From: an uncultured bacterium
Lineage (GTDB): Bacteria; Chloroflexota; UBA5177; JANWHV01
Reading direction: 5' to 3'
NCBI GenBank assembly: GCA_963827235.1
Contig: CAWHAE010000012.1
Span: forward strand, 96,001-160,000
DNA: 64,000 nucleotides
The translations under genes and the position numbers were made by a program. A model generated the notes under the pieces. The model worked only from the letters and a program-made list of their open reading frames with translations. It had not been told where the DNA came from and searched no databases. Positions 10,211-50,293 of this stretch are shown here, piece by piece. Every line of letters starts with the position of its first letter. Position 1 is the first letter of the stretch.

Positions 10211-10426
10211 CGCTCGTGCCGATCGATTGGCGTGATGTTGCGCGGCCTGCGGCCCGGTCTCGAGGCGCCGGTGCGCTGCCGGCGAGGTGAATACGGTGCA
10301 CTTGCGCGGCTCGGCTCGCCCGAGGTAGGTTTGCAGTTCGGGGCGGGAGATCGCCGCTGAGCCGTCTCCCCTCCGTGTAGGCCGCGCGCGACAGGCCGCG
10401 GAGAGCGGGGCGAAGCAGGTACGAAG

Positions 10427-12244
10427 GTGTCGAAGCAGCATTGGTGGGCTCGTATCGTCTGGCGGCTAACCCACCGTCTCCACTATCGTCTCCTCTCGGC
10501 GATAGTGCTGCTGGTGCTGTTGCAGACCGTGCTCTGGGCCGTTCTTTCCCTGTCGATCGCCACGCCGATCGCACGCGACCAGGCGGTGCAGGACCTCACC
10601 GATCTGGTGCAAAGCGCCGGCGGGCGCGTCGACCGGACCATGAGCACGGTCGATGGCCTTTCTCTGCAGATCGTCGTCGACACGTCGGTGCAGAGCACGT
10701 TGCAGCGGGAGGCGCAGGGCATCGCGATCAACTACTACAACCAATCCGACAATTCCCCCGTCGAGAATGTGATCGCCCGCGCGCTCTCCTGGACGGATCT
10801 CTCCTCCCTGAAGATCGGGGTGCTCGGACCACGTCGAGCCACATACGGCGAGCCGCCTGCCATGGGCTGGCACCTGAACGTCGACCCGCAGTTCGAGGCG
10901 GCTCTCGCGGAACATGATCAAGCCAGCCTTCTGCGCTGGACCGCACCCTATCTGAGCACACAGCCCTCGGATAACCATACTACCCTCTGGGTGGCGGCAG
11001 TACGGCCCGTGCTCGACTTCCAGACACTCAAGAACATCGGGATTGCCGTGACGGAGCTACCGGTCAGCCAGCTCGGCCTGGAGTTGCCTGCCACATCTCC
11101 CGCCGGGCACCGTCAACTCGCTCTCTTCAGCTCAAGCGGGCGCCTGATCTTCGCCACGACCGCCAACGTGCCGGTGGGGCCGATAGGGGCGCAGCTCGAG
11201 GCGCGGACGAGCGGCGACGTGATCTGGCAGGGCCAGCGGTACGTTATGGTCACGGAGCGACTGCAGCACGCTGGTTGGATCGCGGTCGGTTTCGTCCCCT
11301 GGGCCGACGCGAATCTGATCGTCACGCAGATAGAACGCACGATCGGCGCTGCCGCCGTCGTCGAGTTGTGCCTGGCAATCGCCATCGCCTGGCAGGTGTC
11401 GCTGCAGATCAACCGCCCTCTGCAGCGCCTTCTCACCGGTATCCGGCAGGTGCGCACGGGGCAATGGTCGGTCAGCGTGCCGGTAACGCCGCCGGACGAG
11501 ATTGCAGAGCTGAGCACGAGCTTCAACGCCATGGCCGAACAGATACGCCTCACCATGGCGTCGCTGGAAGAGACGAAACGGCGAGAGCTGAACGCGCGGC
11601 TCGAGATGTTGGGTGGGCAGATCAATTCGCACTTCCTGTTCAACGCGCTCGAGGTGATCACCTGCGTCGCCTACACCGAGGGGCCGGAGGCAGTGACCCG
11701 GGTGGCTGTAGCCCTGGGCAAGCTTCTTCACTACACGCTGGACACCCACGAAGGCCTGGCGAGCGTGGCGGAAGAGGTCAAGCAGGCCGAGAACTATCTC
11801 CTGATCCAGAGCGAACGATTCGAGGACGTGCTTTCCTACCGTGTGGACGTCGACCCGGCCGTGCAGACCGTCGTCATGCCGCGCTTCTCGCTCCAGCCGC
11901 TGGTGGAGAACGCGGTGAAGCACGGCGTGTACCCGGCGAACCGCGCCTGTACCATCACCGTGCGCGCGTACCGCGACGCCGATCACGTCGTGGTAGAGGT
12001 GGAGAACGACGGCGTCGACATTCCGGCGGCCCGGGCCGTGGAGCTGGCGGAGGGCCTGCGGGCGGAATCCGCCACGGCGCTGGGCATTGGGCTCATGAAT
12101 GTACATCGCCGCCTGAAGCTCCACTTTGGCTCCAGCGGCGGCGTGGAGATTGATGCGCGCACGGGGGCCACGATCGTGCGCATCCGTTTGCCGATCGCCG
12201 GGCCAAAGGAGATGCACGATGTATCACCTGCTCATGGTGGATGA
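10427..12244 (+). CDS. YesM-like sensor histidine kinase (Cache, HAMP, His_kinase)
   Basis: Two TM segments, HAMP (DEIAELSTSFNAM), QINSHFLFNAL, LQPLVENAVKHG, GIGLMNV. Confidence 0.9.
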   Translation: MSKQHWWARIVWRLTHRLHYRLLSAIVLLVLLQTVLWAVLSLSIATPIARDQAVQDLTDLVQSAGGRVDRTMSTVDGLSLQIVVDTSVQSTLQREAQGIAINYYNQSDNSPVENVIARALSWTDLSSLKIGVLGPRRATYGEPPAMGWHLNVDPQFEAALAEHDQASLLRWTAPYLSTQPSDNHTTLWVAAVRPVLDFQTLKNIGIAVTELPVSQLGLELPATSPAGHRQLALFSSSGRLIFATTANVPVGPIGAQLEARTSGDVIWQGQRYVMVTERLQHAGWIAVGFVPWADANLIVTQIERTIGAAAVVELCLAIAIAWQVSLQINRPLQRLLTGIRQVRTGQWSVSVPVTPPDEIAELSTSFNAMAEQIRLTMASLEETKRRELNARLEMLGGQINSHFLFNALEVITCVAYTEGPEAVTRVAVALGKLLHYTLDTHEGLASVAEEVKQAENYLLIQSERFEDVLSYRVDVDPAVQTVVMPRFSLQPLVENAVKHGVYPANRACTITVRAYRDADHVVVEVENDGVDIPAARAVELAEGLRAESATALGIGLMNVHRRLKLHFGSSGGVEIDARTGATIVRIRLPIAGPKEMHDVSPAHGG

Positions 12245-27437: not shown

Positions 27438-27481
27438 ATCGTACCAGCCGCGCATTAAGCCCACGTTAAGCACATCGTTAG
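27438..27481 (-). promoter_or_regulatory. Phased TTAA direct repeats plus extended -10 (PhoP/PhoB-family-like promoter)
   Basis: Minus strand reads CTTAAC-N5-CTTAAT-N10-TACGAT with TGn before the -10. Confidence 0.6.
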
Positions 27482-27531
27482 CGCAGCCCCGAATGTCCAA
27501 TACGAAGCTCTGCCTTGTGTGGACGTGCTGA

Positions 27532-27586
27532 TTTAACGCGCCCTTCAACTCTTCTTAAAGCACGCTTAACACTATCGTGCTACCGT
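27532..27586 (+). promoter_or_regulatory. Four 11-bp-phased half-sites plus extended -10 upstream of the phosphoesterase gene
   Basis: TTAAC (27533), TTCAA (27544), TTAAA (27555), TTAAC (27566), then 10 nt, then TACCGT preceded by TGn. Confidence 0.65.
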
Positions 27587-27962
27587 CAGAACTGGCCGCG
27601 CACGGGAAGTGCCGGCACGCGTCGCACGGGCGATGCCGCCCGGCAGGCGTGACAGGTGGGTTGATCGGCTGGTTGGCAGCCTTCTATTTGGGTTGCCGGC
27701 AGGATACCACAGGCAACCGTGGCCGCAGCGCCGGCAGTCGCCACGCGGCGCTGGCGCTTACCACGCTTGGTGTGGGAGGCACGATCCGTGGTACCGGCTC
27801 CGCGGATGAGGCCGGTGCCCCATGCCCTGGCCGCGTCCTTCGCGGGCATGGCAGCCGGTTGCTGCTTCCGCGAGCAATCACGGGGGGGTTCTCGCCGCCC
27901 GTGGGGAGACATTCGTGCCTCGAGACCTGAAGGTCGATGAGTTCCTAGGAGAGGGGATCACC

Positions 27963-29906
27963 TTGTATAGGTTCAGGCTTCTCGCCCTGCTCGGCGCGGC
28001 CGCGCTGGTGGCCAATGCTTCGGGCCTTTCGGCGCGGGCAAGCGCGCGCAGTGGAGCCACCGCCGCGGTGCAGCCGTCCGCGCTGTCTGGTGCCGCGCTC
28101 AGCGACGAAATCAGCCAGTTGCGCTCCAAGGTCAAATACGTGTTCGTGCTGTATCAGGAGAATCGGTCCTTCGATTCCTACTTTGGCACCTTCCCGGGCG
28201 CCAACGGCATCTACTCGCAGCCGGCCTCGCAGACACCCGGGTACACGCAGCCGATCACGGACACCAACGGCACCGTCACCACCATCAAGCCGTTCCGCAT
28301 CGGTCCGGACCAGTACGCCGCCGATACCGACGATATCGATCACAGCCACCCGCGCATCGTCGCCAAAATGGACTTGGTGCAGAGCCAGCCGAAGATGGAC
28401 AGGTTTGCCCAGGTCGAGGAGGCGAAGTATGTCGCGGCAGGCAAGCCGATCCTCACTGCCAAGCAGATGGGCGAGCTTGCCATGGCCTATGAGGACTGCG
28501 ACACCGTGCCGTTGCTCTGGAACTATGCCAGCCGCTTCACGCTGTTCGACAACGTCTTCCAGGACATGACCGGTCCTTCAACTCCCGGCAACCTCACGAT
28601 CATTGCCGCGCAGTCCGGTCTCACGCAGTTCGTCTTGCACCCCAGTGAGGCCTACACGGGAAACGGCAGCAGCGGCTCCGGCGTGCCTGTGCTCAACGAC
28701 GCCGATCCCTTCTGGGGCTCGCAGCTCGACAAGAGCGCCAATCCCTTGCCGGTCAATCCCAGCGATTTCTCTGGCACCCCCAAGGCCGAGTATTCCACGC
28801 AGATCAACCTGACATTCGCCTCGCTGCCCCTCACCCTCGCCGGCTCCAGTCTGCCCGGTCTGGTGAAGACCGACCGCAGCCCGTCGACAGATCTGGCCGA
28901 CGTTCATCAGGACGTGACGGCGATTGGCGCCGGCAAGCTGGCCTCGGTTCCCTGGGGTTGGTACGAGGAAGGCTACGATCGGGAGCCCACCGATCCCAAC
29001 ACCGGCCCGACCGACGCCAACGGCACGCACGCCTCGTACATCACGCATCACAACGGGCCGCAATACTTCGGCTACATTGCCAACAACCCCAACATGTCGA
29101 GCAACCTGCATGGCCTGGAGGACATGTTCAACGCGCTCGACAATCACACGTTGCCTTCTCAGGGCGGCGTCTTCTACGTCAAGGGCGGCTACCAGAACAT
29201 CCTGGGCCTCAAGCCTGCCGACCCTGACCCGGCCGTGCAGAAGAACTTCCTGGGCGACGACGATCACCCCGCGTATTCCGACGCCCAGATCAGCGAGGCG
29301 CTGGTGGCCAGCACGATCAACAAGATCGCGGCCAGCCCCTACTGGAGCCAGAGCGCCATCATCCTCACCTGGGACGACTCCGAAGGCGACTACGACCACG
29401 TGCCTCCTCCGTCCGTCGCCGCCGGCCCCAACAGCCAGGATGTCAGTCTCGGGCCCCGTGTGCCGCTCCTGGTCATCTCGCCGTATGCCCGTACCCACTA
29501 CATCTCCCACCAGCAGGGCAGCCAGTCATCCGTGGTGAAGTTCGTGGATGAGCTGTTCAACCTGACGCCGCTGGCCAAGCTGCCGGACGAGCTCGGCGCC
29601 CGCGTGACCGGCAAGCAGAAATATGGGCTGGACAACATGGGCCCCATGGACGCCCTCACGCCCGGCATCGGCGACCTGCTTTCCGCCTTCGATCCGGCCC
29701 GCCTGGCCGGACGCGCGGCGCCCCTGCCGGCGTCATACGTTGAGGTGCCGCAGAGCCTGATCACGACTCTGCCGCAGCAGAGCGGCTACGGCTGCAAGGA
29801 CCTGGGCATCGTGCCTACCGACCAGGAGCTGGGCATCAGCAACCCGATCCCGCCGGACTTCAACGCGCGGCCGCTCACCGATCCCAGTGTGAAGGCTAAG
29901 AGCTGA
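27963..29906 (+). CDS. Secreted phosphoesterase / phospholipase C / AcpA-type acid phosphatase
   Basis: QENRSFDSYFGTFPG, GPSTPG, DDHP, TWDDSEGDYDHVPPP, GPRVPLLVISPYA. Signal peptide. TTG start after GAGAGGGG. Confidence 0.9.
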   Translation: MYRFRLLALLGAAALVANASGLSARASARSGATAAVQPSALSGAALSDEISQLRSKVKYVFVLYQENRSFDSYFGTFPGANGIYSQPASQTPGYTQPITDTNGTVTTIKPFRIGPDQYAADTDDIDHSHPRIVAKMDLVQSQPKMDRFAQVEEAKYVAAGKPILTAKQMGELAMAYEDCDTVPLLWNYASRFTLFDNVFQDMTGPSTPGNLTIIAAQSGLTQFVLHPSEAYTGNGSSGSGVPVLNDADPFWGSQLDKSANPLPVNPSDFSGTPKAEYSTQINLTFASLPLTLAGSSLPGLVKTDRSPSTDLADVHQDVTAIGAGKLASVPWGWYEEGYDREPTDPNTGPTDANGTHASYITHHNGPQYFGYIANNPNMSSNLHGLEDMFNALDNHTLPSQGGVFYVKGGYQNILGLKPADPDPAVQKNFLGDDDHPAYSDAQISEALVASTINKIAASPYWSQSAIILTWDDSEGDYDHVPPPSVAAGPNSQDVSLGPRVPLLVISPYARTHYISHQQGSQSSVVKFVDELFNLTPLAKLPDELGARVTGKQKYGLDNMGPMDALTPGIGDLLSAFDPARLAGRAAPLPASYVEVPQSLITTLPQQSGYGCKDLGIVPTDQELGISNPIPPDFNARPLTDPSVKAKS

Positions 29907-39466: not shown

Positions 39467-40726
39467 CTAGCTGAGCGGCCCGCTGTTCTGCTCCCAGGCG
39501 CGGAAGGCGATCACGGCGTTCTGCCCGCCGAAGCCGAAAGCATTGGCCAGGGCAGCCCTCACCGGCCGGTGCCGTGCGACGAGCGGGACATAGTCGAGAT
39601 CGCACGCCGGATCGGCGGTCTCCAGGTTAATCGTGGGCGGGATCACGCCGGTAGCGATGGCGAGCACGGCGCATATGGCGGAGAGGGCCCCGGCAGCGCC
39701 GAAGGTGTGGCCCAGCATGGACTTGTTGGCGCTGATCGCCACCCGGTCGGCCGCGTCGCCCAGTGCCGCCCGAATCGCGTGCGTCTCCGCCACGTCGCCT
39801 GCCGCGGTTGCCGTGGCGTGCGCGGCGATGTAGGCTACCTCATCCGGCGCCAGGCGCGCCTCGCGCAGCGCCTTCCGCATGGCGATCGCCACCTGCTCGC
39901 CGCCCGGCAGGGGATCGGTGATGTGGTGGGCGTCGCAGGTCACCCCGGCCCCGGCCACCTCGCACAGGATGCGAGCCCCCCTGCGCACGGCGTGGACGGC
40001 ATCTTCCAGCACCAATACAGCCGCGCCCTCGCTCAATACGAAGCCGTCGCGATTCAGGTCGAACGGGCGTGAGGCTCGCGCGGGCTCGTCGTTCCGCCTG
40101 GAGAGACCATGCATGTTGGCCAGGCTGGCGACCGATAGGGGATTCACGCACGAGTCGGTGCCGCCTGCCAGCACCGCGTGCACGTCACCGCGCTGCAGCA
40201 TGCGAAACGCGTCGTGTACGGCAAGGGCGCCCGCGGCGCAGGCTCCCGTGGCGCTGAACACGGGCCCGTGAATGCCCAGGCAAATGGCCGGCTGCGTGGC
40301 AGCCATGTTCGGCGCCAGCGCCGGGACCAGAAGCGGGCTGACGCGCTCGGGTCCCTTCTCCAGGCGCACGTGTTCCTCGGCCAGCAGCCGGCTGATGCCG
40401 CCCACGGCGGTGTTGATCGCGATGCCGATCTCGCCGTCGGTCTCCGGTGTGATCGGCAGACCCGCCTCGTCCACGGCCATGCGCGACGCGGCAACGGCGA
40501 ACTGAGCGAAGCGCTCCATCCGGCGGGCCTGCTTTGTCTCCATGTAGCTCGCCGGCTCGAAATCGAGCACCTCGCCGGCGATCTGGACGGGCAGGCCGGT
40601 ACAGTCGAAGCGGGAAATCGGCCGTACGCCGGACACGCCATCAGTCAGGTGCTCCCAGAATTGACGCACTGTCGAGCCGATCGGCGTGACGACTCCCAGT
40701 CCGGTGACCACGATACGTGCAGGCAA
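39467..40726 (-). CDS. fabF: Beta-ketoacyl-ACP synthase II
   Basis: IVVTGLG, catalytic ACAAG, SRPFD..RDGFV, H(AT)AT, KSMLGH, NAFGFGG. TTG start after AAAGGA. Confidence 0.88.
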   Translation of the reverse strand: MPARIVVTGLGVVTPIGSTVRQFWEHLTDGVSGVRPISRFDCTGLPVQIAGEVLDFEPASYMETKQARRMERFAQFAVAASRMAVDEAGLPITPETDGEIGIAINTAVGGISRLLAEEHVRLEKGPERVSPLLVPALAPNMAATQPAICLGIHGPVFSATGACAAGALAVHDAFRMLQRGDVHAVLAGGTDSCVNPLSVASLANMHGLSRRNDEPARASRPFDLNRDGFVLSEGAAVLVLEDAVHAVRRGARILCEVAGAGVTCDAHHITDPLPGGEQVAIAMRKALREARLAPDEVAYIAAHATATAAGDVAETHAIRAALGDAADRVAISANKSMLGHTFGAAGALSAICAVLAIATGVIPPTINLETADPACDLDYVPLVARHRPVRAALANAFGFGGQNAVIAFRAWEQNSGPLS

Positions 40727-40787
40727 TGGTGCGTCCTTTCGCGATGCCCGCGCAGCTCGAGCGGCACGGCACGCTATCGTACCCGCC

Positions 40788-41594
40788 TCAGCACGGAGCC
40801 CGCAAGCTATAGTCCCAAACTTCCGGCTTTGCTGCCAGCAGTGTTGCCAGGAACTGCTCGTCGTCATGGTAGCGTTTGTCGGCAAGCTTCGTGACCACTA
40901 CCGGCACATGCACATGGCCGCGATCGAACGGCCACGGATCCGCAGTGGCCTCGTGCTCGTCGATCTGCCGCACGGCGATCGTCGTCTCGCCATCGATAGT
41001 GGGGATATGGTCGATCTCTCGGCTGACCATGTTGTGCAGCACGAAGAACAATGAGAGCCGATCCCAGGCCCTGAGCCGCAGGTATGCAGGCCAGAGCCGG
41101 TCAGGCTCGACGGCGCCGGCGAATCGAGTGCTCTGTGCTAGCCGGTCGCGCAGCGAGCGCTGCAGAGCCGACTGACCGGCCAGGAATCGCCGTCCTAGGC
41201 CCTGCGACTCCGGCAGCGCTGGCGGTGCCAGAGTACGCGGGTTCCAGCCTTCGACGCCCGCATAGAGCACCGAAGCATGCAGACTCACCAGCAGCCCGCT
41301 GTACGGATCGACCGCTATCGCTGCTTCCACGCCGGCACTATAGAACGCCGCGTGGACTTCCGGCTCCACCTCACCGAGATTCCGCGGCCGGCCAGTTTCC
41401 GGCAGCAGCGTGGGACGCTCCTCCCAGATACGCCAGCCGGCATCGTGCAGGCCTGCCGCGCGGAGAGTCTCTTCCCGGTGCTCGGGTGCCGGGAATCGCC
41501 GGTTGCCCCAACGCTCGGCTATGCGGGCGACCTGTGCCATGTGGTCTGTCTGTCGCACGATCACGAGCTGGTCTTCGATGTGCCGTATGAGCAT
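40788..41594 (-). CDS. DUF3891-family protein
   Basis: MLIR...QTDH, WGN, HDAGW, DPYSGLLVSLH, WDRLSL, PWPF. Confidence 0.75.
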   Translation of the reverse strand: MLIRHIEDQLVIVRQTDHMAQVARIAERWGNRRFPAPEHREETLRAAGLHDAGWRIWEERPTLLPETGRPRNLGEVEPEVHAAFYSAGVEAAIAVDPYSGLLVSLHASVLYAGVEGWNPRTLAPPALPESQGLGRRFLAGQSALQRSLRDRLAQSTRFAGAVEPDRLWPAYLRLRAWDRLSLFFVLHNMVSREIDHIPTIDGETTIAVRQIDEHEATADPWPFDRGHVHVPVVVTKLADKRYHDDEQFLATLLAAKPEVWDYSLRAPC

Positions 41595-41639
41595 CTGTAC
41601 CCTGATAAGAATGTGCTCTTCGTGATAGGAATCTGCCTT

Positions 41640-41830
41640 CCATGATAACAACGTGCTTTCTGAGCGGTGGTTTGTTGGTCTGGCCCGCCCGGGTGCGGAA
41701 CAGTAGTGTCAGGAGAGCAAGCCATGCGACCGCTATCGCGGCCCACGCGATAGGTCGCGGCCCACGCGATAGGTCGCGGCTCGGCGTGCAGGACGGCACT
41801 GACGAGCATGACCACCAGGAAGAGGGCCAA
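41640..41830 (-). pseudogene. Small two-TM protein gene disrupted by a 19-bp tandem duplication
   Basis: TCGCGGCCCACGCGATAGG x2 at 41736-41773. Removing one copy joins LALFLVVMLVSAVLH to PIAWAAIAVAWLALLTLLF. Confidence 0.45.
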
Positions 41831-42005
41831 TCCCTGTAGCCTGGCGGGAGCATCGACTCACGATCAAGGTGTGCTTGTTCCGATATGGTCCGGACTCCGG
41901 TAGCATTCCATATCGATAGGCGAGGACTGCGTCGCAGTCCTTGCGTGCTGGTCATCCCCAAAATCCGGGATGACTCATGACTCACTTCACGTGCGCGGGG
42001 CGTTG

Positions 42006-42359
42006 CTATCCTGCCGTGCGCGGGTTGTCGGGTGAAGGAACTCCAACCGATCGAAACACTTCGCGGGCGCCAACGGTCTCGTTCTCGTCGTACGGTCGGC
42101 CGGCTAGGACGACGAAGGTGGCACTGACGGGCACTATTCCCTCCGCGATTGCATAGTGCGCGAGCTGAGCGTAGTTCGTAGCGCCGGTCTTTCTGAATAA
42201 CCTCTCGCGGCAACTCGCTATCAGCTTCTCGGAAACATTCACCTCGGCGGCAATCTCAAGCTCAGACCTGCCCGCGGCAATCATGCGCAATACGCCGATC
42301 TCCCCACGTGTGAGGAGGGAATCGCATACGAGCATCCATCGTTCGTTGCACCGGTCCAT
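42006..42359 (-). CDS. Solo LuxR/NarL C-terminal HTH regulator (no REC domain)
   Basis: LTRGEIGVLRMIAAGRSELEIAAEVNVSEKLIASCRERLFRKTG...QLAHYAIAEGI. Confidence 0.8.
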   Translation of the reverse strand: MDRCNERWMLVCDSLLTRGEIGVLRMIAAGRSELEIAAEVNVSEKLIASCRERLFRKTGATNYAQLAHYAIAEGIVPVSATFVVLAGRPYDENETVGAREVFRSVGVPSPDNPRTAG

Positions 42360-42435
42360 GTTCCTGCATCACCGATCTCACTGGTCCTCGGTGACCCGAC
42401 ACTTCCCAGGCGTTAGTTGTCGGGCCTGTCTGCCA

Positions 42436-42491
42436 AGCCTACCAGCTGCCTCTTAACGGCGGATTAAGAGCACATCAAAGTTCCGTTAAGG
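42436..42491 (-). promoter_or_regulatory. Four 11-bp-phased TTAA half-sites plus extended -10 upstream of the solo LuxR gene
   Basis: Plus-strand cores at 42453, 42464, 42475 (TCAA) and 42486. Minus strand GTTAAG-N10-TAGGCT with TGn. Confidence 0.65.
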
Positions 42492-42745
42492 GGAAACGAC
42501 CACACGGTCGTCTCTGCGTCGGCTGGGCAAAGGCAGCGACTGGGGCCACCTGCAAGCCTGAACCCGGCTCGGCTGCCCGTCGAAGCACGGCGCTGGTGGT
42601 GGCGTCTCCAGTCTGCACTATATACAGTAGGCGCTGCAGCATGTGCGGTTGGTTCCCGGCACCGAGCCTGAGACTGGAAAAGCTGTCAACGCACAATGTT
42701 CACACACCGACAGCCGCGTGGCCGGCGCCATTCACGCGGCCCGTA

Positions 42746-44935
42746 CTAGCCGACATGCACGGCCTGCAGCGTGCGATAGGAGGTGGCGCGCACACTCTCC
42801 GGGAGCGGCACGTAGTTCTGCCCGCTCGCATAGCTCTGCCCGGCTGTGATCAGCCACTTGAAAAGGTCGATCAGCGCCTGACCTTTCACGACCTGCGCGT
42901 GGTGGGCGCGGACGAGGGCCCAGGAGTAGCCTGCAATCGGGTAGGCACCTGTTCCCTGGGCGTTGACGATGGAGAAGTGCATGGCCGTCACGCCCGGATG
43001 CTGATTCGCGGCCGCCAGGATACTGGCGGCGGACGGCGTGACGAACCGATGCGCCGCATTCTCCACCGCGGCCACAGGCAGCTTCGTGTCCTCGGCGAAC
43101 TTGAGCTCGGTGTAGCCAATGCCGCCGTTGACTGCAAGCACCTCGTTCGCCACCGCTGGATTCCCGGTTTCGCCGATCCCTACCGGCCAGTGCACCACCT
43201 TGCCGGCCCCGGCGTTCAAGGCAAAGTCGCTGCTGACGGCTGAGAGGTAGTCCGAGAAGATGTACGTCGTGCCGCTGCTGTCCGACCGGTGCACGGGCGC
43301 GATCGCAAGCGAGGGAAGGCTCACGCCGGGGTTGAGCGCGGCGATGGCCGGGTCGTTCCAACGCGTGATCTTCCCCAGAAAGATCGCGGCGAGGGTCGGC
43401 CCGTCAAAGCGCAGCACGGACTTCGTGGAGAAGTCGAGGTTGTAGGTGACGGCGACGCCGCCAAGCAAGATGGGCAGTTGCATGACGCCACTGCCGTTGC
43501 TGTTGGCCACGGCCTGCTCGGTGCTGTTCATGGGCACGTCGGTCATGCCGAAGTCGGTCTGATTATTCGTGAACTGCGTGATGCCGCCGCCCGAGCCGAC
43601 AGGGTCATAGGTGACGGCAACCGGGTTCGCCTGCGCGTATGCGGCCAGCGTGGTGGCGAGAAACGGCTGAGCGAATGTGGAGCCCGAGCCGATTAGCCGC
43701 ACGGACGCGGCTGTGGATCCGGCGTTGACGACGCCCACCGGTGTCACGACGATGGTCCGCGTCGCCGGGTGGGTGGTCCTGGCGCCGAACTCTACGGCGG
43801 ACACTCCCACCGCCAGTACCACGATGAGCGCGACAAGCGCAGCGACGATTTTGCCTCGAGTCGAGGAGAGCACGGTGCGCGGCTGCAAGATGCCGTCGAT
43901 CGCGGCCTTCATATCGGCCGCGCGCTGCCAGCGCTTCGCCGTGTCGTTCTGCAGGGCCTTGCCGACGATCTGCTCCGTTGCCTCGGAGACGGCCGGGTTG
44001 ATCGTGCGGACCGGCGGATACACAAACAGCGGCTCGACGCCCTGCGGATTCCGGCCGGTCAAGAGGTGGTGCATCGTGGCGCCCAGCGCGTAGACATCCG
44101 ACTGCGGCGTCTCGTGCCCGGTGAATTGCTCCCTCGGTGCGTAGCCGGGTGTGCCCATCGCCGTCGATGCTGCTCCCGTGCCTCCCTGCGTGCTTCCTAC
44201 CCGGAAGCGGTGAGATGCCACCCCGAAGTCGACGACCTGAACGCGGCCGGCGCTGTCGACCAGTATATTGGCGGGCTTGATGTCGCGGTGGATGACCTGC
44301 GGGTCGCGCGTCTCCAGGTAGTCGAGGACGGACAGGGCCTGACTGGCCCATTGCAGGACGTTGCGCTCGGGCAGCCGCTTGTCGGGCGCGGCGTCCGCCT
44401 TCTTCTGCAGGTCTTCACCGTCCACATAGTCCTGCACGATGAAGTAGCGGCCGGATTCGGTGGGAAAGTCGGTAATCTGTGGGACATTGGGATGTCGCAG
44501 GGCGGAGAGCGTCTTTCGCTCGCCGATGAACGCGTCCTCCGCTTCCTTGCGTTCATCATCGTTCGCGAAGTTGCGCAGCATCTCCTTGATCACGACCGGC
44601 TTGTCGTCGAGCCGCATATCGTGCGCGAGGAAGATGCTGCCCATGCCACCCTTACCCAGAGCCTTGTCGATCACATACCGGCCTGCCGAGAGGGTGACAC
44701 CAGGAGCGAGGGGCGTGGTGCCGATCTCGCGCGCCGACGGCGCGGCCGTCGTGGCGGGTACGGGCGGCGACGCGGAGGTAGTCTGCTCACCGCCGGTTTG
44801 GCGCGTCCGGGGAGGGTTCAGCTTGGAGCTGGTAGCTGGGTTCAGTCGCTGCGTGAGACTGATGCCGCAGGCGTCGCAATATCTGCTACCCGCCGGATTG
44901 GCAGCGCCACACTGCGGGCACATCACATCAGACAC
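42746..44935 (-). CDS. Zinc-ribbon / Hanks Ser/Thr kinase / TM / PstS phosphate-binding fusion protein
   Basis: CPQC..CDAC; GKGGMG, VIK, HRDIKPAN, DFG, GTPGYAPRE; single TM (IVAALVALIVVLAVGV); PstS motifs GSGSTF, YDPVGSGGG, DFGMTD, HRSDSSGTT, IGYTE, YPI. GAGAGGA RBS. Confidence 0.92.
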   Translation of the reverse strand: MSDVMCPQCGAANPAGSRYCDACGISLTQRLNPATSSKLNPPRTRQTGGEQTTSASPPVPATTAAPSAREIGTTPLAPGVTLSAGRYVIDKALGKGGMGSIFLAHDMRLDDKPVVIKEMLRNFANDDERKEAEDAFIGERKTLSALRHPNVPQITDFPTESGRYFIVQDYVDGEDLQKKADAAPDKRLPERNVLQWASQALSVLDYLETRDPQVIHRDIKPANILVDSAGRVQVVDFGVASHRFRVGSTQGGTGAASTAMGTPGYAPREQFTGHETPQSDVYALGATMHHLLTGRNPQGVEPLFVYPPVRTINPAVSEATEQIVGKALQNDTAKRWQRAADMKAAIDGILQPRTVLSSTRGKIVAALVALIVVLAVGVSAVEFGARTTHPATRTIVVTPVGVVNAGSTAASVRLIGSGSTFAQPFLATTLAAYAQANPVAVTYDPVGSGGGITQFTNNQTDFGMTDVPMNSTEQAVANSNGSGVMQLPILLGGVAVTYNLDFSTKSVLRFDGPTLAAIFLGKITRWNDPAIAALNPGVSLPSLAIAPVHRSDSSGTTYIFSDYLSAVSSDFALNAGAGKVVHWPVGIGETGNPAVANEVLAVNGGIGYTELKFAEDTKLPVAAVENAAHRFVTPSAASILAAANQHPGVTAMHFSIVNAQGTGAYPIAGYSWALVRAHHAQVVKGQALIDLFKWLITAGQSYASGQNYVPLPESVRATSYRTLQAVHVG

Positions 44936-45120
44936 GGCGCCGCACGTCCTCTCGACGGCTCACCCGCGTCGCGACGTACCGCGTGACCGCATGGTTCTCT
45001 CGATACTTCGTCAAATCGGCTGTACCTTGTTGCGACGTCGTCTGTTCTCGGCGCTCCCCACTACACTGATTATCTGGCCTGCCATTGCATGCCTGCGCGT
45101 GCAGGGCAGTCCCACGGTGA

Positions 45121-45140
45121 AGATTTAACGGAGATTTAAC
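45121..45140. promoter_or_regulatory. Perfect direct repeat AGATTTAAC at 11-bp period upstream of the kinase-PstS gene
   Basis: AGATTTAACGGAGATTTAAC has the same TTAA core and period as the other boxes. Confidence 0.5.
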
Positions 45141-45525
45141 AGGCGACCCGGGAAGTCCCACTCCCTCAAAGCCCCCCGCCCGGCCGGCCGAGATGGTGGT
45201 GAGAAGGGCTTGGTAGGCTGGAGGGCCACAGCGCCACATCAAGGTCGCCGGTTCTTGGTGCCAACAGCCCGCTCTTTAAGCTGACCGAGGGGTGGCTTCG
45301 GCAACGATGAGTGTGACCAGGCCGGCTGGGCGAACAGCGCGACGTGAGTACAGGAGTGAAACGTGTCCGCCGTCGAGCTTGCCTTCTGCACCACGCAGGC
45401 TACCGAGGGACCGATCTGCTAGACACCGTGACCACCGCGGACGAGCCCGCGAGCGGCGACGCGAGGTAGCGCAGTTGTCGCGCTGATCGACAGCGATCGG
45501 TCGCCGGAATCCGGCAGTGTGCCGT

Positions 45526-48054
45526 CTACCGCACGGCGTAGAGGCGCACCAGGAAGCGCTTGAACGTGAGATGACTGAAAGCGATCGCGTCGGCTTCGAG
45601 CTCGCCGATCAGAATCGCCTTCTCTGCCTGCATCGCCCGGTGCCGCGCCAGGCGGTCGTCGAGCTCCTGCTGCTGCTGCGTGAAGCGCGCCTGCAGGGCC
45701 GTGCAGTGCCCGTCGAGCCTGTTCACGTCGTGCTCGTCGAGCAGCGCGGCGAGCCGCCGGTTCGCGGAGGCGTTGTCTTCCTGGCGCTCCTGCTGCAGGC
45801 GCTGCATCTCGATGGCGAATTGCGCCTTGATGCCGTCCATCTCCGCGACCCTGCGCTGCATCGCTGCCACGCGCTCACCTTCCAGTCGGGATCGCTTGTC
45901 CGCGACCTCGGCGCGAACCGCGGCTACCTCGGGCATGGAGAGCGCCGCCGGGGCCTGGGCGGTCGCGGCATTGAGCGTCACGCGCTTCCATTGCATCAGC
46001 GCCTGCAGATACTTGTCGCCGATGCCCGGGACTGCTTCGAGCCGGTTATAGGTCAGGTCGCGCGCCGTGCGCATGCCCAGAGAGGCCAGACGCCGGCAGA
46101 TGATGCCCGGCACGCCGGGCACATCCGCCTGCGCGAGGTCGTTCTTGAGCACGAAGTCCTGTTTGGACTGGTATTGCAGCACGAGCAAGCGCTTCTGCAA
46201 TTGCTCGGGCTCGCACTCCTCGATGCGGGCGATTTGCGCGTTCAGCCACTCCAGGTTGACGTCGACCTGGCTGATCTCGCGCTCGGCCATCTCTCTCACC
46301 TTCTCGAGACTCTCGTCGATACCCTGCAGCTGCTCGGCCAGGTTCCTGTTGATCTCCTCCATCGCCGGTGGCAACTTCTGCAGGTACTCCGTCCGCATTG
46401 CGGCCAGCCCGCCCAGCTCCGCCGCGCTCTCGGCAACGAGGGAGGTAAGCGCGGTCTCGGTGGCCGCAATCTCGCCGGTGAGCAGCCGTAGCGCGCGCTG
46501 TTCCTGCGCCAGCCGTTGCCGTGTCTCCCGTCCCCTGGTCAGCGCGTCGTCCGCAAGATAGGCATGGAGAGCTACGGCCACGTTCACCAGGACGGCGAGC
46601 GGCAGCAGAGCCAGCCACCTGACCGGTGCGCTGATCGCCGGGACGGGCAGCACGAAAGCCAGCACGCTGGCCACCAGCACGCTGAGCAGGGCCAGCAGCT
46701 GGAACGGCGCGAACCGGGCCCCGAAGCGGGCCGAGCGCTTCGGCAGGGCCGGCGCGCTCACGAGCGGCGCCGCTTCCGCGCCCACACCCGGCGTCGACCC
46801 GGTTGCATCGGAGCGGGCCGCGGCCCGCTCCGGCTGCGTCATGACAGACACGGCCTGGCCCCCGGTGGTTTGCAGCCAGGAGCTGCCGAGCAGTGGCGGC
46901 GACGGCTCCTCGCGGCCCGGCACGACCGGTGTGACCGCGTCCTCCGATTCCGCGGCGGCTTCGGCGGTGCGCGGAATGACGGCCGGTCCCGTATCCGCCA
47001 GGTAAGCAGCGCTTTCCAGCCAGGAGCTGTCGCCCACCTGTGCCGGCGTTCGCTCCTCCACCGGCGGCACCTCGTCCGGTTTGGGCGCGGCCGGCTGGGC
47101 TGCCGGCTGAGCGGCCGGGGCCCTCACCTCGACGTGATCCTTGAGCCAATCCGAACCGATCGGCTTGCCGTGTTTCTCGGCGAGCGACGGCAGCTCCAGC
47201 GGTGGCCGCGCGAGCAGCCCGATAACCTCGCGCGCCAGGTCCGCCGTCTCGCCGGAGCCGTGATCGAGGAGCAGGCGCATCGTGTCCGAGGCGTCCGGCT
47301 GCTTCAGGTCGTCGCTGCGCAGGAGGAGACTCTCCTCCCCGGCTCGCACCGCCGTCCACAGCCGCGGATCTTCGCTGAAGGCGACCAGCGAGAGATAGAT
47401 TACCCAGGTCGAGAAACGGTCGAGGCGCCCGTCGAAGTGCGCGTTGGTCCGTGCCGGGTGCTGATAGTTGGGATCGCCCAGCTCGTTGCTGGCGGCGAAG
47501 CGGCCCTTGAAGGGCGGCACGTACATGCCGTCGTAGTCGATTAGCTTGAAATCCTCGCCCACGACCAGCACGTTGCCGTGCTGCAGGTCGCCATGGGCGA
47601 CGCCGACGCCTTCCAGGTCGCCGACCAGGCGGATCCATCGTGCCGCCAGGAGCTTGAGCAGGTGAGGATTCGCGCGATGCTCCTTGACGAACTTGTCCAG
47701 CGAATCGCCGTCCACCCACTCCATCTTGAGAATGGGAAACGGCTTTCCCTGCACGCGGATCCCATTCTCCTGGTATTCGAAGCCCACGGTGTAGCGGAGG
47801 TGAGCGTGCTCCAGGTAGGTGCTGATGCCCGCGTAGCGGTCCTTCTGGTCCTGCGTGTTGCGTGTGAAGCACTTGACCGCCCAGTACTGCGATCCGCACT
47901 TGACCCGGTAGACGCTGGCGAAATTGCCCGAGACGGCCTGCGGCAGCCCGAGCCGGTTCAGGGTAGGCTGGCCCTCGGCTAGCTCCGCGTCCAGGAGATT
48001 GCTCCGCGGGTGCTGTATCGCCTCGTTGTAGTCTTGTGGCTCTGGCCAGCGCAT
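45526..48054 (-). CDS. YegI-like atypical Ser/Thr kinase with TM hairpin, coiled coil and HhH motifs
   Basis: SGNFASVY, AVKCF, HGDLQHGNVLV, LIDYDGM, YQHPAR; two TMs; VPGIGDK HhH-like motif. Confidence 0.85.
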   Translation of the reverse strand: MRWPEPQDYNEAIQHPRSNLLDAELAEGQPTLNRLGLPQAVSGNFASVYRVKCGSQYWAVKCFTRNTQDQKDRYAGISTYLEHAHLRYTVGFEYQENGIRVQGKPFPILKMEWVDGDSLDKFVKEHRANPHLLKLLAARWIRLVGDLEGVGVAHGDLQHGNVLVVGEDFKLIDYDGMYVPPFKGRFAASNELGDPNYQHPARTNAHFDGRLDRFSTWVIYLSLVAFSEDPRLWTAVRAGEESLLLRSDDLKQPDASDTMRLLLDHGSGETADLAREVIGLLARPPLELPSLAEKHGKPIGSDWLKDHVEVRAPAAQPAAQPAAPKPDEVPPVEERTPAQVGDSSWLESAAYLADTGPAVIPRTAEAAAESEDAVTPVVPGREEPSPPLLGSSWLQTTGGQAVSVMTQPERAAARSDATGSTPGVGAEAAPLVSAPALPKRSARFGARFAPFQLLALLSVLVASVLAFVLPVPAISAPVRWLALLPLAVLVNVAVALHAYLADDALTRGRETRQRLAQEQRALRLLTGEIAATETALTSLVAESAAELGGLAAMRTEYLQKLPPAMEEINRNLAEQLQGIDESLEKVREMAEREISQVDVNLEWLNAQIARIEECEPEQLQKRLLVLQYQSKQDFVLKNDLAQADVPGVPGIICRRLASLGMRTARDLTYNRLEAVPGIGDKYLQALMQWKRVTLNAATAQAPAALSMPEVAAVRAEVADKRSRLEGERVAAMQRRVAEMDGIKAQFAIEMQRLQQERQEDNASANRRLAALLDEHDVNRLDGHCTALQARFTQQQQELDDRLARHRAMQAEKAILIGELEADAIAFSHLTFKRFLVRLYAVR

Positions 48055-48226
48055 TTCAGGGACGCTCTCTCAACTGGCTTCCCTCGCAGGATCCAGCCGG
48101 CTGTTTCCGGTCACCGCGGATCGCCGGCCCGCCGGCTGGTGTTCAGCCCGCGGAGCACTGCCGCGCGACCGTCCCGCGTGGCGGCAAGCCCGGCGCATGC
48201 GGCAAACACGGCGGCGTGCCACTGCC

Positions 48227-48967
48227 TTACAGCCTTGCCCGGATGCGCAGCAGTGTGACGTCGTCGTTCTTCAGGTTTCCTGTCGAGCGCAGCTCCTGCA
48301 CAAGCTGTGCGAAAGACTGCCCGCCGGTGCCGTCGAGGTGCAGGTCGAGCAATGCTTCCCACGGGCGCGTCTTTGCTTCCGTGGCGCGCAGGAACCAGCA
48401 GCCCAGGGCGTCGGTCATCAGGAAGAAGGTGTCGCGCTCCTTCCACCGGCCCGAGCTGCGCACCAGGGCGCTGTCCCCGCCGTTACTCGAGAGAAGCGCC
48501 GGCCGGCTGGTGAAGTCGGAGGATCGCTTGAGCGGAAACGCGTTGAGCAACCGGCCGGCACGCAGCTGGAAGAGGCAGCTGTCTCCCGCTGCTACGGCAA
48601 ACCACTTCAGCAGGGCGCCGTCCCTGAACAGTCTCAGTCCGAGAAGCGTTGAAAAGGCGCCGAGTCGTGCTTTCTCCTCCGCGTACCAGGGCAGCGGCCT
48701 ACCGCCGACCTGCGTTCTCCACTCTTGTCTCAGCGGCTCCAGGTCCTTGTCCTCGAGCCGGTCGTCGATCTTGCCTTCGCCATAGGCGTTGACCAGCATC
48801 TCTGCCCAGAGTCCGGCATAGGAGGTCTCAGTGGCGCCGTCCGCAATGGCGAAGCGATAGGCACGGTGCTTTGCGGACGCCGGGTCCGGCTTATAGAAGG
48901 CGTCTTCGTAGTCGGCATCCGAGTTGCCCGCTTTTGGCAGGCAGAAGGCCTGTTGCTCTACGTGCAC
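48227..48967 (-). CDS. PP2C-like protein phosphatase (YegK/PphC-type)
   Basis: YEDA, FAIADGA, GDSCLF, LMTDAL, NDDVTL metal-binding Asp motifs. Confidence 0.85.
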   Translation of the reverse strand: MHVEQQAFCLPKAGNSDADYEDAFYKPDPASAKHRAYRFAIADGATETSYAGLWAEMLVNAYGEGKIDDRLEDKDLEPLRQEWRTQVGGRPLPWYAEEKARLGAFSTLLGLRLFRDGALLKWFAVAAGDSCLFQLRAGRLLNAFPLKRSSDFTSRPALLSSNGGDSALVRSSGRWKERDTFFLMTDALGCWFLRATEAKTRPWEALLDLHLDGTGGQSFAQLVQELRSTGNLKNDDVTLLRIRARL

Positions 48968-49021
48968 GAGATATGGCTCACGATCTGAATCATCCTCCAG
49001 CCGCTGGTACGTGCTCTGGGC

Positions 49022-49888
49022 TTAACGCAGATTGCTCGGTCTGGTACCGATGTCGAGGAAGCGGATCACGGAAACCATGTCGGCGTTGAAGACGAAGCCG
49101 CGGGCCTCGGCGGCCACCACGTATTCTTCCTGCCGGGCAACATCCAGCATGTATTCCGGCAGCGGGCTGGAGATGCGATACAGCAGGTGTGCGTACTGAT
49201 CCGGCAGGGTCTGCTCGTCGCTGGGAAACTCGATCGGAGTGGCTCGATTGGTCGAGATGTGTGCGTTGAACAGCAGGGCATTGCCGTCGCCAGTAGCGAG
49301 ATCCTTCAGGGCCTGCGCGGAGGCAGTGGGATCGCCGTCGGTCGACTCGCCGTCCGTGATGTTGATCACTATAGGCGGGAAGCTGGACTGGTGCTCGGTC
49401 ACCCAGGGTTCCAGCAGAGCTGTCGCCTGCTGGAACGCGCGGCGCATCGGCGTGCCGCCGCTGGCCACGGGCTCAAACCAGATGGGGAACTTGACCGTCT
49501 GCTCCATGATGCCGCCGGCGCCGTCGTCCATCTTCTTCGTGCGCTCTTCGATGCGCACGGGCGCGTTCGCCACGTCGCCGATCGGCACCAGATCGCTGCC
49601 GGAAAGCGGCCCGCCGAAAGCCGGACCCACCTGGGCGCCGTAGCCGATCACGCCGACCGAGTAGTAGTCGCGCACGCCGTCGGACTTGGCGCACTTGATG
49701 ACTAGGTTCTGCAACAGGCGGTTGATCGCGTCGGCCACTCCCTGGGCCTTGGTCCGCCGGTTCGCGAAGGGCACGCGCGGCGCGTCCGGCTGGCCGGCAT
49801 CCAGTGATTCGGCCATGGAGCCCGACTGATCGATGAGAAACAGGAAGCACGATGGATTGAGACGGTTGATCTCGGCGGTGTACGTCAC
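49022..49888 (-). CDS. vWA (TerY-like) domain protein
   Basis: MIDAS DQSGS, GGTPM, ITDGE. GGAGGA RBS before GTG. Confidence 0.88.
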   Translation of the reverse strand: MTYTAEINRLNPSCFLFLIDQSGSMAESLDAGQPDAPRVPFANRRTKAQGVADAINRLLQNLVIKCAKSDGVRDYYSVGVIGYGAQVGPAFGGPLSGSDLVPIGDVANAPVRIEERTKKMDDGAGGIMEQTVKFPIWFEPVASGGTPMRRAFQQATALLEPWVTEHQSSFPPIVINITDGESTDGDPTASAQALKDLATGDGNALLFNAHISTNRATPIEFPSDEQTLPDQYAHLLYRISSPLPEYMLDVARQEEYVVAAEARGFVFNADMVSVIRFLDIGTRPSNLR

Positions 49889-50054
49889 AGGGTCCTCCGG
49901 TTCCGCTGGTCGCCCTGGGCGGCGGATGTGCAGTAGTGGCCGTGCGCCGTGCGCAATGGCAGCGCCGTCGTCGGGCGAGCGAACTGTCCCTGACTAGAAT
50001 GGGGCCATTCTCCGCGCGCGTCAATCGCCTTCGCGGGGGTATATTGCCGCGCAA

Positions 50055-50131
50055 TGTCATAGAAGTGTTCTGCCCGTGTCATACAGTTGTCACTCGTCGA
50101 TCACTTGAGCGTCATGGCGTTCCCATAGCCT
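50055..50131 (+). promoter_or_regulatory. PhoB-type box array (TGTCA repeats, 11-bp period) plus -10
   Basis: TGTCAT (50055), TGTTCT (50066), TGTCAT (50077), TGTCAC (50088), GATCAC (50099), CGTCAT (50110), then 10 nt, then TAGCCT. Confidence 0.6.
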
Positions 50132-50293
50132 GGAAGATGAACCACGTGACGGCGCTTACCAATAGCGGGCAAGCGTCCTTGTCCGCACGGCAGACATCTC
50201 ACACGGCGCGACGCCTCACTGTCGCCTCGCAGCCTGCCGTGCCGGCCGGCAAGACGAGCTCTCGCACCACTTTGAACGGCAGGTAAAACGAGC

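Follow-up and report, generated by a model that had tools for sequence, protein, structure and literature searches.

A predicted receptor Ser/Thr kinase with an extracytoplasmic PstS domain as a plausible phosphate sensor in an uncultured Chloroflexota bacterium

Gene and domains of the kinase-PstS protein

A 64,000-nt stretch of contig CAWHAE010000012.1 (positions 96,001 to 160,000 of the forward strand; referred to here as the window) from the genome of an uncultured, soil-type Chloroflexota bacterium harbors a gene in which a Hanks-type Ser/Thr kinase is joined to a domain of the phosphate-binding protein PstS. The frame of this kinase-PstS gene (P0001) comprises 729 codons without interruption, from a GTG start codon at position 44935 to the stop at 42746 on the minus strand, and stop codons are present on the plus strand across the same interval. 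The GTG start agrees with the N-termini of homologues in the family alignment, and a database copy of the protein (P0002, 725 amino acids) starts four codons later. The encoded domains follow one another in the order zinc ribbon, Hanks kinase, one membrane helix and full PstS domain, with the following coordinates.

42746..44935, minus strand: kinase-PstS gene, 729 amino acids (open reading frame (ORF) list, translation, Pfam and NCBIfam domains; G+C content at third codon positions (GC3) 0.84, similar to that of real genes nearby)
44861..44920, minus strand: N-terminal zinc ribbon (CPQC...CDAC), residues 6-25 (Pfam Zn_Ribbon_1, 26.4 bits at a cut-off of 25)
43886..44677, minus strand: Hanks-type (RD) kinase domain, predicted to be cytoplasmic, residues about 87-350 (Pfam Pkinase, E 3.9e-33, residues 87-298)
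43784..43855, minus strand: single membrane helix, residues about 361-384 (hydropathy, model helix 359-386, paralogue alignment)
42773..43717, minus strand: PstS domain, predicted to be extracytoplasmic, residues about 407-721 (TIGR00975, PstS matches in the PDB, fold, contact residues)

The zinc ribbon is kept in five of the nine close relatives of the protein, these five being the ones with a complete N-terminus, and is also found in a paralogue with a LivJ-type outer domain. Apart from the CPQC...CDAC ribbon, the N-terminal half displays the kinase motifs GKGGMG, VVIK (K117), HRDIKPAN (216-223), DFG (236-238) and APRE (266-269). When the ten family members are aligned, each position of these kinase motifs is either invariant or conserved to at least 90%. 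Phosphorylation of the activation loop is expected of kinases of the RD type. The sole hydrophobic stretch lies at about residues 361-384, with a peak Kyte-Doolittle value of 3.03. Downstream of it, Pfam PBP_like_2 covers residues 407-688 (E 5.1e-37), and the PstS equivalog TIGR00975 of NCBIfam scores 318.7 bits against a cut-off of 205, with residues 415-721 spanning profile positions 2-309 of 315. Sequence matches of this ectodomain to PstS proteins in the PDB reach E 8.9e-67, with a full-length alignment to 1ixh at E 5.8e-54, and the motifs GSTF, GSG, D466 and RSDSSGT are all present.

The residues that contact inorganic phosphate (Pi) in E. coli PstS, which we take to be T10, F11, S38, D56, R135, S139, G140 and T141 in mature numbering, align identically with T420, F421, S448, D466, R550, S554, G555 and T556 of the kinase-PstS protein in the HMMER alignment to chain 9k3s_E. 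These eight contacts together with D552 define a nine-site Pi signature (T/S, F/Y, S, D, R, D, S, G, T), which was scored across 96 PstS domains. With T or S and F or Y accepted at the first two sites, all members of the close clade (11 of 11) retain the signature, and the kinase-PstS protein has exactly the signature of the transporter PstS encoded elsewhere in the genome. Three of the four orphan PstS proteins of the neighbouring clade (P0143, P0254 and P0232) have lost it. From these comparisons, the ligand site of the fusion clade is under constraint.

The AlphaFold2 model, for which an alignment of 54 rows was used, reaches a mean predicted local distance difference test score of 86.7, with both globular domains mostly above 90, a helix at residues 359-386, a disordered linker at 30-66 and an activation loop of low confidence at 240-257. 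In a Foldseek search of the PDB, the top-ranked match of the modelled ectodomain was the Pi-bound PstS 8ods (target template modelling (TM) score 0.92, root-mean-square deviation 2.2 Å over 316 columns), and the target TM-scores to 8ods, 5i84, 2abh and 1pc3 range from 0.86 to 0.92, figures that apply to the predicted fold only. The modelled kinase domain matches PknB, PknA and PknI with target-normalised TM-scores of 0.75-0.85. By sequence, key residues and modelled fold, the protein belongs to both the PstS and the Hanks kinase families, and its predicted topology is that of a single-pass receptor Ser/Thr kinase with the kinase inside and PstS outside. A preliminary description of the locus, which gave no strand, had claimed one uninterrupted ORF of 729 amino acids in which a zinc ribbon, a Hanks kinase, one transmembrane helix and a full PstS domain with its phosphate-contact motifs are joined; the ORF list, the translation, Pfam, NCBIfam, hydropathy, the HMMER alignment and the nine-site signature bear this out. 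It had also proposed a topology prediction, in which hydropathy and the model agree on one membrane helix, and a check of the junction (about 43700-43900) by read mapping.

The junction might reflect an assembly chimera, or the gene might be in decay. The assembly (G000; 7.98 Mb in 21 contigs, completeness 95.9%) has an estimated contamination of 9.06%, and the single listed run of public reads (X1, share of words 0.10) provided no piece bridging 43700-43900, no RNA run being listed. Pieces of this run at least 99% identical to the gene lie only at 43100-43250 and 43419-43569, and the remaining pieces are conserved-motif matches from other organisms. Moreover, the best locus in a metagenome scan (L096; 9986-11092, plus strand), which is 71% identical over residues 6-343, ends at 368 amino acids by the membrane helix without an ectodomain, and could be a truncated form or a frameshift. 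However, nine relatives from different sources are collinear over the junction with helix and linker conserved, and GC3 is even across it (0.82 for residues 1-360, 0.83 for 361-400 and 0.85 for 401-729). The contig on which the gene resides is 1.63 Mb long and shows synteny with a genome of the same genus. The absence of stops and the conservation of all catalytic and ligand residues argue against decay. Taken together, a chimera or a decaying gene is extremely unlikely.

Distribution and origin of kinase-PstS fusions

In a collection of 5.8 billion proteins, the pairing of a kinase with PBP_like_2 is found in nine proteins besides the window's own copy, at 63-72% identity; of these, which come from ENA, JGI and Logan, four lack part of the N-terminus and five are complete. 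An exhaustive search of 50%-identity representatives added at least 24 distant clusters in which a kinase is followed by PstS, a figure obtained from the 35 proteins of this arrangement among the 267 collected by subtracting the 11 close ones. The architecture is therefore not singular. Compared with the window's protein, the distant kinases are 25-35% and the PstS domains 33-42% identical, and a helix is predicted between the two domains in 23 of the 24 clusters. Those distant members that carry a name come from Planctomycetes, namely Planctomycetia (MCI0700635.1) and Planctomycetaceae (MBA4188642.1), both from metagenome-assembled genomes, and Fimbriiglobus ruber (WP_088254098.1), and all are labelled 'PstS' by their sources. 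The cultured Zavarzinella formosa DSM 19928 also carries an 817-amino-acid Pkinase+PBP_like_2 gene (L059, locus in NZ_JH636443.1), among whose neighbours no link to phosphate or signalling was seen. As leads only, the ESM Atlas contains clusters of 70, 109 and 64 members that are 100% Pkinase+PBP_like_2, the commonest phyla being Chloroflexota, Actinomycetota and Myxococcota.

Outside the window's genome, a full-length match was found neither among 41 genomes, four of the same genus, nor at E <= 1e-120 among 401 genomes of the phylum, several of these genomes being incomplete. The metagenome scan with the family alignment likewise contained no full-length fusion among the 80 loci listed, those other than L096 being LivJ-type paralogues or distant kinases. 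A profile scan of genome contigs returned mainly plain pstS genes, and of the matches opened, the Zavarzinella locus alone was a fusion. Three long matches (L077, L015 and L022) were considered as fusions and rejected, each consisting of two pstS genes in tandem. By these sequence searches the kind appears widespread but patchy, with clusters in several phyla, and this clade rare, as none of the GTDB species genomes searched other than the window's own yielded the full-length form.

As a separate observation on PstS domains, four proteins of 711-931 amino acids (P0123, P0125, P0126 and P0127) contain two PBP_like_2 (PstS) domains in tandem per chain. The ESM Atlas also holds Planctomycetota clusters of 67 and 51 members with Pkinase and NMT1_3, which suggests that many nutrient-type receptor kinases are still undescribed.

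The literature searched contained neither a paper on a kinase-PstS fusion nor the phrase 'PstS domain', in line with the preliminary description, which had been aware of no characterised example. A paper of 2005 already lists an architecture class that unites kinases with solute-binding domains, without a PstS type in the relevant part (PMC1262709). The main text of a study of Planctomycetota kinases (PMC11032199) does not mention PstS or periplasmic binding proteins, and its supplementary domain tables might list the architecture. The kinase-PstS fusion is an uncharacterised but recurrent architecture that is hidden under 'PstS' annotations.

The kinases nearest to P0001, with 51-62% identity in the N-terminal half, carry Peripla_BP_6/ANF_receptor (LivJ-type) ectodomains and, where named, come from Chloroflexi or Ktedonobacteraceae. 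One such paralogue is encoded in the same genome (885 amino acids, Peripla_BP_6); it is 57% identical over residues 17-377 and unrelated beyond that point. As the similarity stops there, the outer end of the membrane helix is the likely breakpoint of a domain swap. We compared a kinase tree of 74 rows with a PstS-domain tree of 96 rows, both from quick searches with support by the Shimodaira-Hasegawa-like approximate likelihood-ratio test and no bootstraps. The kinase tree places the PstS-bearing clade (support 99) within the LivJ-type kinases and the Planctomycete-type PstS kinases beyond a long branch (support 100). In the PstS-domain tree, the close clade (support 99) falls in one half, near PstS genes of the same class that are linked to pstC (adjacent in five of the six loci). 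The Planctomycete-type ectodomains stand on one side of a branch with support 90, in the opposite half, which they share with the genome's own transporter PstS. As both trees separate the close clade from the Planctomycete-type fusions, the kinase-PstS fusion is predicted to have arisen twice independently. In the clade of P0001, the same sequence comparisons indicate that a receptor kinase already in existence exchanged its LivJ-type (amino-acid-binding) outer domain for PstS, directly beyond the membrane helix.

Classical phosphate system and candidate Pho boxes

Phosphate perception in the textbook scheme is indirect: the PstSCAB transporter and PhoU inform the PhoR kinase. Exactly two proteins of the assembly match the PstS model, namely P0001 and a 370-amino-acid PstS encoded on another contig (C10). 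The latter belongs to an operon, pstS-pstC-pstA-pstB-phoU, each product of which scores above its own NCBIfam cut-off, with a gene for an OmpR-family response regulator in divergent orientation. No second pstC, pstA or phoU was found in the assembly by tblastn. The earlier statement that the window lacks pstCAB holds: tblastn with the genome's PstC, PstA, PstB and PhoU located pstC, pstA and phoU only on C10, and the sole match in the window was a generic ATP-binding cassette (ABC) ATPase, 30% identical to PstB, at about 1497-2186.

With a single set of pstC, pstA and phoU in the genome, the ectodomain might be a tethered transport-type PstS that docks in its Pi-loaded form on the sole PstCAB, so that the kinase would report or regulate flux via PstB, PhoU or the Pho regulator. 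The domain passes the cut-off of the transporter-PstS equivalog, and its predicted fold resembles the E. coli PstS chain of a PstSCAB cryo-electron microscopy entry (9k3x_E, target TM-score 0.86). A second, signalling use of PstS is also known, as Pi-loaded PstS activates the CtpL chemoreceptor (PMC8050422). However, pstCAB already has an adjacent PstS of its own, to which the ectodomain is 43% identical and which lies in the opposite half of the PstS tree. In the parent family, this helix bears a LivJ-type domain unrelated to PstS, a fact more in keeping with a generic sensor module than with docking on a transporter. We regard such docking as unlikely.

Two TTAA arrays lie close to the kinase-PstS gene.

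45122..45140, minus strand: candidate Pho box of two perfect units, GTTAAATC - 3-bp linker - GTTAAATC (11-bp period), about 187 nt before the kinase-PstS start
42450..42490, minus strand: four-unit TTAA array (CTTAACGG / TTTGATGT / CTTAATCC / GTTAAGAG), about 91 nt before a solo LuxR ORF

TTAA is rare in this genome, with 1223 copies per 7.98 Mb. The spaced form TTAA-N7-TTAA occurs as 25 pairs and 10 triples, whereas the other spacers from 0 to 20 give 0-4 pairs, save N18 (two periods) with 18. The 25 pairs form 13 clusters, none of them inside ORFs of high GC3. Two arrays flank pstS and the response-regulator gene on C10. Another cluster stands beside the gene of a PhnD-family phosphonate-binding protein (TIGR01098, 117.3 bits at a cut-off of 112.05) and a divergent phosphodiesterase-like Metallophos gene, and one in the window (27455-27570; C12:123455-123569) precedes a gene of the acid-phosphatase/phospholipase C family (27822-29906). 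Clusters also adjoin a CehA/McbA-type PHP hydrolase and four ABC binding proteins, whose best names, all below threshold, include UgpB and 2-aminoethylphosphonate binders. The remaining ones are next to a GT4 glycosyltransferase, a MurJ-like flippase and one gene of no assigned family. Upstream of pstS in both of the other same-genus genomes examined (G003 and G004), four-unit arrays are near-identical and their flanks differ, so that the motif marks pstS in three of three genus genomes examined.

The TTAA-unit consensus, with its 11-bp period, resembles the Pho box of the cyanobacterial regulator SphR, which is described as at least three direct 8-bp repeats of the consensus CTTAACCT with 3-bp linkers (PMC1906773). 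Strict TTAA pairs were found in none of five LivJ-paralogue loci and not in an arsenic-linked pstS locus of the same-genus genome G001. A search of 42300-45600 for promoter-like sites found none, and the single terminator-like site, located inside the gene, is no more than chance would yield. These predicted sites provide good evidence that the kinase-PstS and LuxR genes belong to the genome's candidate phosphate-starvation regulon, and expression of the former probably depends on the classical phosphate regulator. The preliminary description had placed the receptor kinase outside the control of PhoR; this is doubtful because the same rare motif marks the kinase-PstS gene, pstSCAB-phoU and phosphorus-scavenging genes. 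The predicted Pho box before the gene instead suggests a layered design, in which the classical system controls a second sensor, rather than an independent pathway.

Proposed mode of action and genomic context

In the reading that we favor and consider rather probable, P0001 is a Pho-induced membrane receptor kinase: external Pi would be sensed by closure of the PstS clamp, and the response would be Ser/Thr phosphorylation. At low phosphate, a PhoB/SphR-like regulator would bind the two upstream TTAA units and switch on the gene, as it would pstSCAB-phoU and the phosphorus-scavenging genes. The protein would insert into the membrane with zinc ribbon and kinase inside and PstS outside. Binding of orthophosphate would close the two PstS lobes, and, in keeping with what is generally known of the activation of receptor kinases such as PknB, this closure may pass through the single helix and change how the RD-type kinase associates with itself or autophosphorylates its activation loop. 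As the parent family has a LivJ-type clamp on this helix and juxtamembrane region, what is transmitted is probably a generic response to clamp closure, in which the receptors pair or orient differently. The kinase would then phosphorylate cytoplasmic targets, one candidate being the co-regulated solo LuxR protein next door. We infer Pi as the ligand, the direction of its effect, the binding of the regulator and the substrates of the kinase. On the sequence evidence the protein is a plausible direct phosphate sensor.

Several observations weigh against this reading. The site upstream of the kinase-PstS gene has two units only, and the cyanobacterial box is described as having at least three (PMC1906773). 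Strict TTAA pairs occur in none of six pstS loci of the same class, for which flanks of 1.5 kb were covered, and the sole locus of the same phylum has one pair. The response regulator beside pstS scores 114 bits at a PhoB cut-off of 296. No PhoR gene was found beside it, the adjoining ORFs being DeoC-like and Hsp90-like, and the best match to the proteobacterial PhoR model (263.5 bits, cut-off 334.2) is a 459-amino-acid frame about 30 kb off. Within the genus, the standalone PstS closest to the ectodomain (51% identity) is that of G001, whose gene is part of an arsenic-resistance cluster, and the kinase-PstS gene itself lies within an accessory block beside a defence-type triad. The last two points each open an alternative.

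The orphan PstS of G001 has the following setting.

C10:757000-776999 of G001 (L177), ORF 9742-10791, minus strand: orphan PstS; neighbours are an ArsR-LMWPc fusion, a second LMWPc, ArsR, an ArsP permease and Pyr_redox_2

No pstC was found within 20 kb of this gene. The ectodomain of P0001 might accordingly sense arsenate or another tetrahedral oxyanion, and the kinase would then report exposure to a toxic anion. The fusion clade shares a 16-row PstS clade (support 96) with this arsenic-linked protein, and the sister group contains Pyr_redox_2-PstS fusions (P0053, P0055 and P0059, metagenome proteins). Against this, P0001 has the same binding signature as canonical PstS proteins, among them the transporter PstS of the genome, and the motif upstream of its gene is common to pstS and phosphorus-scavenging genes. 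No arsenic genes were seen among the window ORFs scanned at 34-58 kb, and the link comes from one genome. The canonical Pi signature is intact in the G001 orphan as well. An arsenate receptor is very unlikely on this balance.

The surroundings of the kinase-PstS gene contain the following features.

49022-49888, minus strand: TerY/vWA (PADLOC TerY, 1.6e-107)
48227-48967, minus strand: PP2C (PADLOC PP2C, 2e-30)
45526-48054, minus strand: P0268, atypical kinase of 842 amino acids with a membrane segment and coiled coil (PADLOC STK_OB, 2.5e-77, residues 1-266)
42006..42359, minus strand: solo GerE/LuxR-type helix-turn-helix protein, 117 amino acids (Pfam GerE, E 1e-10)
40788-41651, minus strand: DUF3891 (domain scan of window ORFs)
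approx. 40890..50070, no strand: accessory block of DUF3891, LuxR, kinase-PstS and the TerY-P triad (DNA comparison with G001)

The triad genes (45526..49888) have GC3 values of 0.80-0.87. P0268 has no Pfam match at all; its STK_OB match covers 266 residues, compared with 562 positions of the profile, and in place of the C-terminal part of the model there are a linker rich in Pro and Ala, a hydrophobic segment and a long coiled coil. The solo LuxR ORF, with a GC3 of 0.69 below that of its neighbours, lacks a receiver or ligand domain and is possibly a co-regulated partner of the kinase-PstS protein. Gaps of 590 nt and 386 nt separate the kinase-PstS gene from the triad and from the LuxR ORF, respectively. 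The flanks of the block (window 40590-40747 and 50077-50153) are 9.33 kb apart here and 845 bp apart in G001, where the flanking genes are a ketoacyl-synthase gene and a glycosyltransferase promoter; the segment 50077-50153 is 82% conserved in G001, beside glycosyltransferase genes. P0268 was found in none of the four same-genus genomes, which are 83-92% complete. As the six genes are missing between the same flanks in G001 and P0268 was not found in the same-genus genomes, the six would form an accessory block by insertion or replacement.

The name TerY-P reportedly goes back to Anantharaman et al. in 2012, and a role in defence is said to have been described by Gao et al. in 2020. This setting invites the view that P0001 is an accessory part of a TerY-P-type stress or defence module to which it feeds a signal, or a defence kinase, and not part of phosphate housekeeping. 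TerY, PP2C and the atypical kinase lie immediately upstream on the same strand, the lack of the block in G001 and of triad-kinase matches in the four same-genus genomes fits such a module, and P0001 matches models of the single-gene defence kinase PD-T4-6 (best E 1.2e-56). However, the best of these matches are confined to the generic kinase domain (residues about 83-351); a few longer models extend past the helix to residues 448-472, and no PD-T4-6 model covers the whole PstS domain. P0001 matches none of the TerY, PP2C and STK_OB models of PADLOC. In addition, its own TTAA site lies within the gap that separates it from the triad, and its kinase clade descends from nutrient-type (LivJ) receptor kinases. 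We consider membership in the defence module highly improbable.

A combined reading takes the block of about 9 kb as one mobile, phosphate-controlled Ser/Thr circuit, in which a Pho regulator would act on the receptor kinase and the solo LuxR protein, and the kinase would feed nutrient status to the TerY-P triad. Such a circuit, which if real would tie phage or stress responses to phosphate supply, is unlikely.

The reading of P0001 as a Pho-induced receptor kinase can be set beside known systems. The closest described one is GlnH-GlnX-PknG of mycobacteria and corynebacteria, called the only characterised Ser/Thr kinase system stimulated by a solute-binding protein (PMC8050422). There too a solute-binding protein gives an outside signal to a Ser/Thr kinase, but three proteins, a soluble kinase and an amino-acid ligand are involved, whereas P0001 unites the two functions in one polypeptide with a phosphate-type binder. 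PknD of M. tuberculosis is likewise a Hanks kinase of the single-pass receptor type and has a genetic link to phosphate transport genes (PMC1262709, 'Mbk'). It differs in having an NHL/beta-propeller sensor, with PstS encoded by a separate neighbouring gene; in P0001, PstS itself would be the sensor and no pst transporter genes are nearby. In Pseudomonas aeruginosa, CtpL also uses Pi-loaded PstS as a signalling input beside transport (PMC8050422), but the contact is non-covalent, the receptor is a chemoreceptor and the output is chemotaxis in place of Ser/Thr phosphorylation.

The PstS of the E. coli PstSCAB-PhoU-PhoR/PhoB system (1ixh, 2abh, 9k3x) shares with P0001 the equivalog model, the Pi contacts and the predicted fold (target TM-score 0.86-0.89). 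In contrast to it, the PstS domain of P0001 is not free or lipid-anchored and not encoded with pstCAB, is covalently joined by a helix to a Ser/Thr kinase, and would have phosphorylation and not transport as its output. The LivJ/ANF-receptor-type kinases (Pkinase + Peripla_BP_6), an architecture noted for Nostoc (PMC1262709), have the same zinc ribbon, kinase, juxtamembrane region and helix, and differ in that the outer domain of P0001 is the type II phosphate clamp PstS, not a branched-chain amino-acid-type domain. No biochemical characterisation of a receptor kinase of the LivJ or PstS type was found in the literature searched. The Planctomycete Pkinase-PstS proteins agree in domain order, in the predicted helix between the domains and in Pi signatures that are mostly kept. 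They represent an independent fusion, with a longer linker and kinases that are only distantly related to that of P0001, and no zinc ribbon is reported for the Zavarzinella protein.

If the proposed mode of action holds, a clamp and a kinase on one polypeptide would make a simple and directly testable phosphate receptor. At least two independent fusions in several phyla would represent convergence, and as databases name the fusions plain 'PstS', a class of candidate nutrient receptors is hidden by annotation. A clean swap of binding domains on one helix would also be useful for understanding and engineering signalling by single-pass receptor kinases.

The genome that carries the window is large, with 8.0 Mb compared with 4.4-5.4 Mb in the four same-genus genomes, and gives about 110 matches to a histidine-kinase model; either the genome is very rich in signalling genes or the bin is partly mixed.

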